Below are positions 4,220-6,950 of a stretch of 64,000 bases of DNA, piece after piece. The stretch is taken from positions 1 through 64,000 of the forward strand of contig JBAZTH010000002.1 of NCBI GenBank assembly GCA_041661965.1, read 5' to 3'. The stretch comes from Candidatus Margulisiibacteriota bacterium. Lineage in GTDB: Bacteria > Margulisbacteria > WOR-1 > O2-12-FULL-45-9 > XYB2-FULL-48-7. Below the pieces are notes generated by a model. The model worked only from the letters and a program-made list of their open reading frames with translations. It was not told the DNA's origin and did not search any database. The translations under genes were made by a program, and so were the position numbers. Each line of letters opens with the position of its first letter. Positions within the stretch are counted from its first letter, which is position 1.

Positions 4220-4292
4220 GCGCCATTAGCTCAATTGGTAGAGCAGCTGACTCTTAATCAGTTGGTTGAAGGTTCAAGTCCTTCATGGCGCA
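4220..4292 (+). tRNA. tRNA-Lys (anticodon CTT)
   Basis: Acceptor GCGCCAT/ATGGCGC plus A, anticodon loop CTCTTAA (U33, CUU, A37), T-arm GAAGG-TTCAAGT-CCTTC. The last 3 nt overlap inverted-repeat copy IR-L. Confidence 0.9.
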
Positions 4293-5721
4293 TTTTCCCT
4301 TTACAGCGAACCATCGCTGATGTTGGGCGGCTTGGAGGCGACGAATGTTGCCGACAAGCCGCCCTATTATTATGATCGGCCGAAAAATCCCCTTCCGCCG
4401 CAGGGTCGCGCAGCGGGCCGGAGGCGGCATCGACGCTATCGGAATACAATAGTTTGACTTCTATCGTCTCTTTCGAATAAATGACCTTTTCGATGTGCCT
4501 TTTTATGACCAGGCGTTTCTCAGTTTTTCCCTTCAGTTTTGCCGCGTCAATGACGGCTTTTAGTATCTCCTGGACTCTTTCGGTCTTTATCGGTGAGTAA
4601 CCCCCACCTGGTTCGCACCCACTCAAGCCACCATTGCTATCGTTATTGAGCACGTAGGTCAAACTATCAAGGTATTGTCTGTTATTCCTGATCCTATCAA
4701 GGTTATCGATGATAAACTTGTCCAGCCGGTCGGCGCTCACCTGTCGGATGTCGCAGAATGACCGATCTCGCTTATCGATAACTGAACAGCGGTAGTAGAA
4801 ATATCTGGTCCGCTTGTTATTGGCATATTTGACCTTGTTGGTGAACACCGCGCACATAGCCGAGCCGCACTCTTTACAGCGGATCAAGCCGGGAAATAGC
4901 GAAAAGTTAAAGGTTGTCATCTTCTTGGGCCGAATATGGTCTTTCCTGATGTTCTGGACCTCATCGAAAATCATTTTGGAGATGATCGGCGTGTGAAGGC
5001 CCTGATATATTGTCCCCTTATGCTCGACCATCCCGGCATGGACAACGCCTTTCAGGATCGAATCTAAGCCGGTTTTAGAATGAGGCAGGCCGGAGCGGGT
5101 AAACTGTTTATTAGCTTTAAGCTTGTCGTAAATCCGCTGTGTTGAATGGGTCTCCAAAAAGTCCTCAAAGATAGTTTTGACTATTTCGGCCTCTTTGGGA
5201 ACGATGACCAGCTTGTTGCCATCCCTCTCGTAGCCAAATGGTGCTCTGCCAGGCCCCCACAACCCCTTTCTGGCCTTCTCGAGTATCTTGTCCCTGATCC
5301 GCTCGCTGATAAGCTCCCGCTCGAATTGGGCGAAGGTCAGCATTATATTCCGTAGCAGTCGACCGGATGGCGTTGAGGTATCAAAGCGCTCGGTTATCGA
5401 AAGGAAGCTAACGTTGTGCCTCTCAAATATTTCTATAAGCTGATAGAAGTCTTTGGGCGATCTGGTCAGCCGATCGATCTTGTACGAGATAACTATATCG
5501 AGCTTGCCTTGCTGTATATCGTGGAGCATTTCCTTCAACGCCGGGCGGTCCGTATTTGCGCCCGTGTAGCCCTGGTCCGAATAGACCTTGTAAATATCCA
5601 TCTTTTCCTGACTGCTAACAAACGACCTGATCTTTGACTCCTGGGTCGCACAGGAATTAAACTCAACATCGGCTTGGCTATCGGTAGAGACCCTGGTATA
5701 GATTGCTGCTTTCATGGTCAA
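4258..5721 (-). CDS. Large serine recombinase (resolvase/invertase catalytic domain, recombinase domain, zinc ribbon)
   Basis: N-terminus MKAAIYTRVSTDSQ...YKIDRLTRS (catalytic Ser motif), then a recombinase domain and CxxC...C zinc ribbon. There is no in-frame stop before 4258, so the last ~65 codons read through IR-L and the antisense of tRNA-Lys; the native C-terminus is uncertain. Confidence 0.9.
   Translation of the reverse strand: MTMKAAIYTRVSTDSQADVEFNSCATQESKIRSFVSSQEKMDIYKVYSDQGYTGANTDRPALKEMLHDIQQGKLDIVISYKIDRLTRSPKDFYQLIEIFERHNVSFLSITERFDTSTPSGRLLRNIMLTFAQFERELISERIRDKILEKARKGLWGPGRAPFGYERDGNKLVIVPKEAEIVKTIFEDFLETHSTQRIYDKLKANKQFTRSGLPHSKTGLDSILKGVVHAGMVEHKGTIYQGLHTPIISKMIFDEVQNIRKDHIRPKKMTTFNFSLFPGLIRCKECGSAMCAVFTNKVKYANNKRTRYFYYRCSVIDKRDRSFCDIRQVSADRLDKFIIDNLDRIRNNRQYLDSLTYVLNNDSNGGLSGCEPGGGYSPIKTERVQEILKAVIDAAKLKGKTEKRLVIKRHIEKVIYSKETIEVKLLYSDSVDAASGPLRDPAAEGDFSADHNNRAACRQHSSPPSRPTSAMVRCKGKMRHEGLEPSTN
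4290..4451. repeat. IR-L: left copy of a perfect 162-bp inverted repeat (partner 6789-6950), abutting the tRNA-Lys 3' end
   Basis: Base-for-base reverse-complement identity with 6789-6950, checked by eye. A further ~50 bp inward (4452-4500 vs 6740-6788) is ~75% identical. Confidence 0.9.
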
Positions 5722-5907
5722 TTTCCTCCTTTATTTGAGATCAAATACTTAAGCTCTTTTATCAAAACTTGCTGGGCGTTCATGCTATTAAGTTTTTGGA
5801 TGTAAGCCAAGAACTTATTGCACTCGACCTTTTGGGCCATACTACAGATAACCCCGGCTTGCCTCTTGTCGCAATAACAGCAAGGGTGAATTGGATAAAA
5901 CGGCATA

Positions 5908-6453
5908 CTAAAACACCTCCCTGCCTGCCGGTATGGCAGGCTTGTTTAAAACGAAGCAATGACTGGCGAGATCAGCGGGCAATGAGGCCCCACCGCCGCA
6001 GAGAAACACATAAACCGGAATGCCGCGCCTGACTGCCTGACGCACCGTGAACAGCGTGCCCCGGGACGAACCATGCAGGAAAGCAACCAGGCACGAGCAG
6101 GCAGAGATAAGCCGCTGATTGCGCCCCAGAAGCGCGGAGACCGCCTGCTGCCGCGCCGCGCCGGGAGAAGCCGAACCCCAAACCACCTGACCACCAGCGG
6201 CCAGAAAACGCCCAACCGAGGGACGGACCGAGACCGGAAACCCGCCAGCCGAAGACCAAGCCGAGAAGACCACCCCCGAAGCAGATGCCCCCTGCTCAAC
6301 CAGGGCGGAAAGGGCGAACTGATCAGCCCCAACTGCGCCACCGGAGGCCACCAGGAAGCCACGAGCCCGGAACGCGGAGACCAAAGAGGCAACGAACGGG
6401 GAAAAAGAAGCGGGAAGCGAGCGGGAACCAACGAAACCAGCAATGCGAGACAT
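5908..6453 (-). CDS. DprA/Smf-like Rossmann-fold protein (DNA-processing family, short form)
   Basis: GGAVGADQFALSALVEQGA and GSSRGTLFTVRQAVRRGIPVYVF resemble the DprA Rossmann domain. Preferred start is the second ATG (MSRIAGF) behind RBS GGAGGTG. The gene is GC-rich, unlike the adjacent AT-rich recombinase. Confidence 0.45.
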   Translation of the reverse strand: MSRIAGFVGSRSLPASFSPFVASLVSAFRARGFLVASGGAVGADQFALSALVEQGASASGVVFSAWSSAGGFPVSVRPSVGRFLAAGGQVVWGSASPGAARQQAVSALLGRNQRLISACSCLVAFLHGSSRGTLFTVRQAVRRGIPVYVFLCGGGASLPADLASHCFVLNKPAIPAGREVF

Positions 6454-6515
6454 ATGAGCCACCTCCTGAAACAAGATGAAATGGACCTAGCATTTTTTTC
6501 TTCCTGTCACCCGGA

Positions 6516-6549
6516 GCACATATGCGAGTTAGATGCCGAGCATATGTGC
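6516..6549. promoter_or_regulatory. Palindrome GCACATATGC-N14-GCATATGTGC upstream of the DprA-like/recombinase transcription unit (candidate operator)
   Basis: Perfect 10-bp arms read directly, ~60 bp upstream of the DprA-like start on the minus strand. Confidence 0.3.
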
Positions 6550-6788
6550 GGAGGGCGCGGAGGAGGCAAAATATTACTCGATACCTCGAATATGATATTT
6601 TGCCGACGTAGCAGAGGGGCGCGAGCTACCTTAGAAGGCTTAGCGGCTCAAATGATGTATATCAGCGAACGACCCCTTGACAGGAAAGAAGAAAAAAATG
6701 CTATCATGAGAAAGCTGGAGAAAGAAAAAAAGGCATAAAAAGGCACAGCGAAAAGTGGCATTTAATTCGAAAGAGGCATAGAAGGCAA

Positions 6789-6950
6789 TATTGTATTCCG
6801 ATAGCGTCGATGCCGCCTCCGGCCCGCTGCGCGACCCTGCGGCGGAAGGGGATTTTTCGGCCGATCATAATAATAGGGCGGCTTGTCGGCAACATTCGTC
6901 GCCTCCAAGCCGCCCAACATCAGCGATGGTTCGCTGTAAAGGGAAAATGC
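6789..6950. repeat. IR-R: right copy of the perfect 162-bp inverted repeat
   Basis: Reverse complement of 4290-4451. Confidence 0.9.

Follow-up and report, generated by a model that had tools for sequence, protein, structure and literature searches.

DNA inversion systems of the Hin (Salmonella) and Gin (phage Mu) type, integrative elements with large serine recombinases (LSRs) like phiC31/Bxb1-type prophages and the staphylococcal cassette chromosome (SCC) element SCCmec with CcrAB/CcrC, the tycheposons of Prochlorococcus and the yeast 2-micron plasmid each share part of their design with the locus described here. The locus lies in a 64,000-nucleotide stretch (hereafter the window) of Candidatus Margulisiibacteriota bacterium (GCA_041661965.1, contig JBAZTH010000002.1, positions 1 to 64,000 of the forward strand), and consists of a 13.76-kb genomic island at the 3' end of a tRNA-Lys(CTT) gene. 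The tRNA-proximal end of the island is a 2.66-kb LSR integration module with three genes, all on the minus strand, and its 2.34-kb inner segment is bracketed by a perfect 162-nt inverted repeat. The module is probably also an invertible switch.

In anatomy the locus is closest to the Hin-type switches, and as a mobile element it is of the LSR integrative island type. As in Hin and Gin, the recombinase gene lies inside the segment that it would flip, inverted repeats are found at both ends, a promoter-like box at one end of the segment is directed outward at the adjacent operon, and contigs of both orientations occur among relatives, the flipped ones from short-read assemblies. Unlike the invertases, which comprise ~190 amino acids with a C-terminal helix-turn-helix, the recombinase is a 485-aa LSR, and the NCBIfam model of the Mpi invertase scores it at 30.7 bits against a cut-off of 272. 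The repeats also differ, being perfect over 162 nt and 162-220 bp long compared to the 26 bp of the hix/gix sites, and one of them doubles as the attL arm of an island in a tRNA gene.

The LSR gene (4258-5715, minus strand) encodes the domain architecture of the phage and SCCmec enzymes, with an N-terminal resolvase domain carrying the serine nucleophile (PF00239 Resolvase, 1e-38; motif IYTRVSTDSQ), a recombinase domain (PF07508 Recombinase, 9e-12) and a zinc ribbon (PF13408 Zn_ribbon_recom, 6e-11). As in LSR elements, the inserted DNA is bounded by a short core shared at the 3' end of a conserved gene and present in the uninterrupted site of a relative. The likeness to composite SCC islands includes the tandem accretion of cassettes, with repeated att-derived sequence between them, and the best NCBIfam match, which is CcrB; the score of 199 bits is, however, far from the family cut-off of 900, as are those for CcrC (144, cut-off 900) and CcrA (137, cut-off 700). 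In contrast to both groups, the target is the end of a tRNA gene, with the tRNA differing by lineage, a full inverted attP-like site is kept inside the integrated element, and the recombinase open reading frame (ORF) crosses attL into the tRNA gene. The best relatives of the LSR in phage and plasmid collections, characterized enzymes included, are 32-40% identical, and since IMG/VR gave a single distant match (L161, 54%), nothing points to the element being a phage. Exact-sequence look-ups returned no identical protein on record for the LSR or for the DprA-like protein encoded beside it, and neither Pfam nor NCBIfam detected a transposase domain of the kind expected for a DDE transposon or insertion sequence.

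The nearest concept that we found is that of the tycheposons, cargo islands that integrate at and stack beside tRNA genes, flanked by partial tRNA copies and mostly employing tyrosine recombinases, with a large serine recombinase in 27 of 937 (bioRxiv 10.1101/2020.12.28.424599). Here the flanks share a 7-nt core only, the distal arm (X, below) is not a tRNA fragment, and the module is bracketed by long inverted repeats; ARAGORN and self-comparison detected no partial tRNA-Lys copy in the window, and the recombinase is a serine enzyme. The circle predicted for the excised island would resemble the yeast 2-micron plasmid (FLP/FRT, 599-bp inverted repeats) in having two long, site-bearing inverted repeats that separate a recombinase segment from a second unique segment, and flip-flop and concerted repeat evolution would be expected in it. 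FLP is, however, a tyrosine recombinase acting on a eukaryotic, non-integrating plasmid, whereas the island circle is a prediction. Our search of the literature returned no description of the present architecture, which is not proof of its absence.

An island at the 3' end of tRNA-Lys

The tRNA-Lys(CTT) gene (4220-4292, plus strand; ARAGORN, and 76 bits with the Rfam tRNA model) closes a cluster of Gly-Arg-Leu-Lys tRNA genes located downstream of a gene for a membrane pyrophosphatase, and contributes the B half of the integration site. A homologue search with the pyrophosphatase, from which the contig of a 98%-identical protein was taken, revealed the empty site of a related strain (L162; GCA_041661845.1, JBAZTQ010000175.1). 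This contig is 92% identical to window positions 103-4118, and beyond its tRNA-Lys the alignment resumes directly at window positions 18068-18408. The bases of the empty site read tRNA-Lys...GGC GCATTTT TCTCT... and continue uninterrupted into the sequence found in the window from 18057 on. The contig carries the source label Kiritimatiellales, yet it is 92% identical to a window whose other relatives are WOR-1/Margulisiibacteriota, and it has probably been mis-binned.

Because the related strain has an empty site, positions 4290-18056 of the window are recognized as an island at the 3' end of tRNA-Lys(CTT), and this island was placed by site-specific recombination. The core GCATTTT is found in attL (4290-4296, plus strand; the crossover lies somewhere within it) and attR (18050-18056), two copies separated by 13,760 bp, as well as in the empty site (L162 4106-4112) and, as the reverse complement of 6944-6950, in an internal site designated S2. 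In the empty site the 7-nt core is present once, within the tRNA end, as expected for site-specific recombination. The order tRNA.GCATTTT.Z constitutes attL, where Z, the island-side arm, is the left arm of the inverted repeat, and X3.GCATTTT.host constitutes attR. The right arm of the repeat together with the adjoining sequence X1 forms S2, an internal, inverted attP-like site (X1.GCATTTT.Z) with the composition of the predicted attP. The half-site spacings, 19.5 vs 23.5 bp, do not serve to tell attB-like from attP-like sites, since the crossover may lie at any point of GCATTTT. An initial annotation of this DNA had correctly described the repeat with a GCA at each outer end; the empty-site comparison adds what it had missed, namely that the left GCA is the last 3 nt of tRNA-Lys(CTT) and belongs to the core GCATTTT, that the left arm starts in the tRNA gene and serves as part of attL, that the island extends over 13.8 kb, and that the right arm is embedded in an internal attP-like site.

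Self-comparison revealed X to be a repeat family with three members, X1 (6951-7023) abutting the right arm, and X2 (12278-12351) and X3 (17979-18049) inverted relative to X1. Every copy ends in ...GGGTCGAG beside GCA. X1 reads on the minus strand as a P-arm-like half-site (...GGTTTGA-16 nt-GTCGAG beside the core) and contains a TATAAT box at 6998-7003 on the plus strand. The X2 unit (12200-12358, plus strand), inverted relative to X1 with 89% identity over 80 nt, combines a hairpin (12200-12240), a TTGCAT-17-TATAAT arrangement (12276-12304), the P arm and a core-equivalent GCAATTC (12352-12358). The X3 unit (17908-18056, plus strand) leads into the attR core, where the host sequence of the empty site resumes immediately. 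X2 and X3 thus have the same orientation, and each is followed by a core and host-trailer-like sequence, as in SCC tandem cassettes. The sequence after X2 (GCAATTC..., 12352-12400) is ~72% like the tRNA-Lys trailer of the empty site (L162 4106-4170), so that the second cargo cassette is flanked by direct [X.core.trailer] repeats, and it may represent an older attR or tandem accretion. The idea that X is a degenerate tRNA was rejected: ARAGORN and Rfam made no call, no T-arm pairing could be drawn by eye, and X and tRNA share the GTTYGA motif alone, located 4 nt further from the core in X.

The same three-site design, tRNA.Z - LSR - Z'.X' - cargo - X.host, recurs throughout the LSR family. Genome and metagenome collections were scanned with the LSR, yielding 158 non-redundant loci, and an inverted repeat brackets the LSR gene in 111 of these, with one arm over the LSR 3' end (median length 151 bp, median identity 96%, 25 perfect). 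A convergent tRNA gene is located at the LSR-3' arm in 71 loci, and the 76 loci with a convergent tRNA call represent 21 isoacceptors. In 16 loci the cargo, of 1.7-6.6 kb, is closed by a far X copy that is inverted, extends to the core and has 93-100% identity. The close relatives (Margulisiibacteriota, WOR-1, Saganbacteria; LSR 53-91% identical) target tRNAs for Lys, Leu, Ile, Met, Tyr, Glu, Gln, Val and Ala, and in each genome both arms end at the same few tRNA-end bases, the core, whatever the tRNA species. Distant relatives have a longer shared core, such as the GGAGCCA of tRNA-Asn, and their X is made up of a TAnAAT box, then GTTYGA at ~22 nt from the core, and finally the core. At the same tRNA-Lys locus in one relative (L001) the module is 87% identical and the cargo unrelated. 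The design is conserved across many phyla and is present in more than 100 genomes of uncultivated bacteria.

Two loci of the family depart from the standard arrangement. In L113 (1-2485) tRNA-type sites lie to either side of the LSR, tRNA-Ile.Z at the 5' side and a tRNA fragment plus tRNA-Arg at the 3' side. Recombination of the internal attP-like site with another tRNA gene would produce this pattern, but the contig may also be chimeric; since it is a 2.5-kb metagenome contig whose arm allele differs from that of its sister L139, we did not rely on it as proof that S2 is a live attP. L058 (1247-5502; Saccharibacteria) has two adjacent perfect inverted-repeat pairs, of 304 bp and 144 bp, around cargo and LSR, along with a 20-nt direct copy of the tRNA-Gly 3' end.

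The inverted repeat and the two orientations

The arms of the repeat, the left at 4290-4451 (plus strand) and the right at 6789-6950 (minus strand), are 162 nt long, 100% complementary and 2337 nt apart, as established by repeat finding and our own check, in full agreement with the initial annotation. The 64-kb window contains no further copy of the arm, and a chance origin of a 162-nt match is effectively impossible. Gapped blastn prolongs the repeat inward to 4507/6734, with 95.9% identity over 220 columns; the inner ~58 columns, with small indels, are ~84% identical, where the annotation had estimated ~75% over ~50 bp. The repeat is real and no artefact of one assembly: an independent metagenome contig of 2583 bp (L081, sample Ga0172379) is 100% identical to window positions 4329-6911, comprising the inner segment and exactly 123 nt of each arm, which is what a k=123 assembly graph yields for a true inverted repeat. 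An assembly duplication of one arm, which had been named as part of what would refute an invertible segment, is contradicted by this contig, since both inner junctions are reproduced at 100%. The contig is mute on the orientation of the segment.

The arms were aligned from nine genomes. In the window, L006 and L065 no difference separates the two arms over the outer ~160 nt (core to ...AATACAATA), and in L003 and L004 only one or two positions differ between them; along the full alignment, within-genome identity in these five is 91-98%, compared to 70-91% for the best between-genome match. The outer arms (Z outer, the island P' arm on the left) thus evolve in concert within most of these genomes, which supports the ongoing homogenization that had been proposed from the window alone. 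The inner part behaves differently. The left inner arm (4452-4507, plus strand; prox-type) is the true LSR 3' coding end, kept across genomes, and the right inner arm (6734-6788, minus strand; dist-type) is a frame-broken copy of it. This copy had earlier been described as a decayed remnant, and the broken frame is indeed there; however, over the inner ~56 nt the differences between the LSR-side and distal copies are the same in all aligned genomes, which marks the distal copy as an old duplicate held by a constraint of its own and no decaying scar.

Both orientations of the inner segment are represented among contigs of relatives, the flipped ones all from short-read assemblies. In the clade that has the DprA-like gene, 22 loci (the window included) have the LSR 3' end beside the tRNA, and four are flipped: L166 (21.5 kb, JGI), L167 (ENA), L090 and the contig of P0140. 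The flipped contigs all read DprA-like, ORF, LSR, Z', X', P hairpin, cargo start, where the P hairpin is a conserved stem-loop ahead of the cargo. The X'-P hairpin-cargo start stays next to the module, which is the signature of an inversion of the inner segment; use of a second attP as the source of the flipped relatives was rejected on the same ground. The LSR homologues have two kinds of C-terminal tail, a tRNA-antisense kind (...GLEP/GFEP...) and an X-antisense kind (PRP...TIP; ARPV...LIIP..FM), and the flipped loci were traced through homologues with the latter. Flipping would lengthen the LSR tail, giving a predicted protein of 536 aa here, and lengths of 500-540 aa are found in P0122, P0132 and P0140. 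Distant relatives with a flipped-like arrangement are L054, L072 and L077.

Several conserved signals lie in and near the arms. An outward promoter-like box (6677-6707, plus strand), consisting of TTGACA (6677-6682) and an extended -10-like TGCTATCAT (6699-6707), is found just inside the right arm and aimed through it at X1 and cargo operon 1; its form (TTGACA..TGCTAyAAT) is conserved in 15/15 aligned loci. The earlier proposal that a flip changes what lies upstream of operon 1 fits this well. A mirror copy, TGACAGG..AATGCT (6488-6509, minus strand; inverted pairs I6/I15, conserved in the 15 loci), faces the DprA-like gene. Judging by their conservation and extended -10 form, both boxes are putative promoters. 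A flip would leave the outward box directed at the tRNA, with transcription of the LSR gene running towards the cargo.

Each arm also contains a hairpin, designated b (4325-4364 in the left arm, 6876-6915 in the right arm, where the core follows at 6944-6950). Compensatory double changes are found at 12 of its 16 pairs among 18 sequences, and a G.U pair is kept in 16 of the 18 on the tRNA-sense strand, indicating that the hairpin is selected on the strand transcribed from the tRNA operon in the left arm or from the X1 side in the right arm. It probably acts as a terminator or insulator against incoming transcription. A highly conserved block occupies about 4392-4451 of the left arm. Rfam (E<=1, 3800-19000) identified four tRNAs alone, with no match for Z, X or the P hairpins.

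Close to the core, a mini-palindrome, CAGCGAACCATCGCTG (4304-4319), carries a CGAAC motif, and the GGTTCAA of the tRNA-Lys T-loop is mirrored by GCGAACC in the left arm. In 57 of the 76 loci with a called tRNA, a CGAAC-like YRAAC begins +11 to +15 past the tRNA end, compared to 3.8% in shuffles (58/76 lie within the tested range of +8..+20). The motif mirrors the T-loop GTTCRA about a centre near the last tRNA bases, and the LSR may thus recognize GTTCRA in the T-loop on one side and its mirror CGAAC in Z on the other.

Possible inversion and rival readings

With arms of such length and identity, the inner segment of 2.34 kb should be able to invert, and we lean slightly towards the view that it does, thereby switching the direction of the outward promoter and the tail of the recombinase; the flips that suggest this are seen between genomes only. 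The route to inversion would be either an exchange of the RecA type between the arms or a reaction of the LSR at the two cores, with conversion between the arms keeping the outer ~160 nt identical. It would turn the outward box to the defence cargo, as in the window, or to the tRNA, and would alter the last residues of the recombinase. More tentatively, in a proposal that we consider possible but doubtful in full, the locus may belong to a widespread, undescribed family of tRNA-end LSR islands whose module doubles as a Hin-like, LSR-driven switch, with the outward promoter toggling between cargo and tRNA antisense. In such a switch the same LSR and half-sites would join attP x tRNA T-loop/acceptor end for integration and attL x internal inverted attP for the flip, the flip would swap the C-terminal tail of the recombinase, and the T-loop mirror motif would explain retargeting to at least 21 tRNA species.

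A number of observations weigh against inversion. All four flipped relatives are short-read metagenome contigs that cross a repeat at least as long as the assembly k-mer. The start of contig L166 lies precisely 126 nt from an arm-specific single-nucleotide polymorphism, which is also the length over which its arms are identical, so that the connection made through the repeat may depend on pair information or be wrong. The orientation ratio is skewed (22:4 in the clade, ~71:4 family-wide), and the strain of the window is seen in one orientation only, at the assembly level. The initial annotation had proposed that the segment flips, and that sister genomes should be searched for the opposite orientation; the clade does contain contigs of both kinds, with L090, L166, L167 and the P0140 contig opposite to the window, though with these same reservations about short-read joins and the window's own strain. 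Homogenization is not universal, since the arms of L001 and L002 have diverged to 74-80% identity (full-length alignment; 78% and 86% by local blastn). A simple sigma-70 scan calls neither promoter-like box, the spacer being 19-20 nt. To our knowledge, LSRs do not canonically recombine an attL-type site with one of the attP type.

The weightiest rival, to which we give a minority share of our belief, is a static architecture in which attL is accompanied by an internal attP-like copy serving as operator or insulator, gene conversion without crossover maintains the identity of the arms, functional inversion of the segment does not take place, and misassembly over a repeat longer than k accounts for the flipped contigs. 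The common orientation of 22/26 clade loci and of all contigs with diverged arms (L001, L002, L012, L083) is as this reading predicts, L081 and L166 demonstrate that assemblers break or become ambiguous in the arms, and a hairpin b on both sides suits an insulator in either orientation. Yet four independent contigs, from four samples and two assemblers, have the same flipped linkage of LSR 3' end, Z', X', P hairpin and cargo start, and the outward promoter-like box just inside one arm is conserved. Inverted repeats of 160 identical nt are, moreover, expected to recombine in any RecA-proficient cell.

An origin in nested units, with the 2.66-kb Z...Z' as an autonomous LSR 'transposon' whose arms are terminal inverted repeats, inserted at the tRNA end before mobile X'...X cargo cassettes, appears unlikely. 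Module and first cargo are both bounded by inverted repeats ending at cores, the module is often its own contig (L081, L085, L092) and has a host-like GC content compared to the 37-43% of the cargo, and the 87%-identical modules of the window and L001 carry unrelated cargo, all in keeping with separate units. However, graph breaks that fall exactly k nt inside each arm account for the module-only contigs, the distal arm is always accompanied by X at any tRNA, cassette 2 is without a left X, and among the loci seen none has the module alone against host DNA or the cargo alone against a tRNA. More improbable still, to the point that we give it hardly any credence, is a scar of two oppositely integrated elements, the alternative put forward in the initial annotation, or an assembly duplication. 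The frame-broken LSR 3'-end copy in the right arm does look as if a second recombinase gene had been deleted, but the same arrangement, with the same position-specific inner differences, is found in many genomes and phyla, a conservation that a scar does not fit, and the independent contig L081 reproduces both inner junctions at 100%.

Module genes, cargo and implications

Besides the LSR, the module encodes a DprA-like, Rossmann-only protein (5908-6456, minus strand; PF02481, E=3e-10), the first gene of the three-gene unit, and a 62-aa Cys-rich protein (ORF62; 5718-5906, minus strand) between it and the LSR. The DprA-like protein has weak PsyrA/ShosA matches, is kept in 29 loci and is 94% identical to that of L001. 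ORF62 was recovered by tblastn in 25 related loci, directly upstream of the LSR in all of them, and the complete unit is kept in at least 25 loci. ORF62 is a candidate regulator or directionality factor, and the DprA-like protein is likewise a candidate directionality factor.

The LSR ORF crosses the left arm and ends within the tRNA-Lys gene. Its frame is open through Z into the tRNA in 10/10 genomes, with the other frames mostly closed and a mild third-position excess, and the extreme C-terminus therefore depends on the sequence beyond the core. The conserved residues of the Z-encoded tail coincide with the stems of hairpin b, making coding and structural constraint in Z inseparable, and the tail may be purely non-coding. 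Overrunning the attachment core and stopping inside the antisense tRNA gene is a family-wide habit of the LSR ORF, and the last ~10-60 residues thus differ among the integrated, flipped and (predicted) excised states.

From the right arm to ~18 kb the GC content falls to 37-43%, compared to ~55% elsewhere, while that of the module is host-like. Each of the two cargo cassettes is preceded by a P hairpin, a GC stem of 8-10 bp (GCGGGCGC...GCGCCCGC) with a ~30-nt loop. P1 (7035-7090, plus strand; self-comparison) lies ahead of operon 1 and its direct copy P2 (12404-12459; 91% over 57 nt) ahead of operon 2, and a P hairpin follows X' in the relatives L001, L002, L004, L090, L166 and L167. Cassette 1 (7148-12171, plus strand; GC 37-40%) encodes a ParB-like protein, a 140-aa protein without matches, a SNF2 helicase (490 aa, ZorD/DpdE-like), a second ParB-like protein and a B12/radical-SAM protein; the ParB-N-like proteins have weak PDC-M38A / PD-Lambda-5_A matches. 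PADLOC assigned no named defence system to this operon, which is a candidate defence operon and may represent an undescribed system. Cassette 2 (12574-17825, plus strand; GC 35-43%) encodes a 1233-aa SNF2/DrmD/BrxH-like helicase, with BrxHI and DrmD as best PADLOC matches, and a DUF2779 protein (515 aa, weak Cas4-like match), together a candidate two-gene defence module.

Each X unit (12276-12358 and 17979-18060) resembles a tiny transcription unit, with a conserved TATAAT followed by ~45 nt and, in the case of X3, by a hairpin whose T-run is supplied by the core; a scan flagged a terminator-like stretch at 18026-18047. The unit could encode a small RNA, or provide an outward promoter restoring expression of host genes downstream of the island. 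Elsewhere in the window (28147-29000), a tRNA-His gene (28147-28224) is followed by a 1-kb GC dip (37.6%), with minus-strand ORFs (28264-28878 and 28946-31252) that lack Pfam matches, and this region may be the remnant of another tRNA-associated insertion.

Contigs of the family very often break off ~48 nt past the distal arm, or else precisely k nt into one of the arms (L081, L085, L092, L010, L011, L072, L077). The islands fragment short-read assemblies systematically, probably leaving their cargo under-represented in metagenome-assembled genomes. In practical terms, the repeats break such assemblies exactly k nt into the arms, and metagenome-assembled genomes are no reliable guide to how the enclosed genes are oriented.

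If the proposed reading is correct, the locus would represent a large family of LSR islands with defence genes in candidate phyla (Margulisiibacteriota/WOR-1, Patescibacteria, Omnitrophota and others) whose mobile elements are poorly known. It would also provide a sequence logic for the targeting of tRNA ends, the T-loop GTTCRA being mirrored by CGAAC in the arm of the element, of relevance to retargetable integrases. The LSR module would then be an invertible promoter switch over a defence operon, linking integration, phase variation and immunity in a unit of 2.7 kb.

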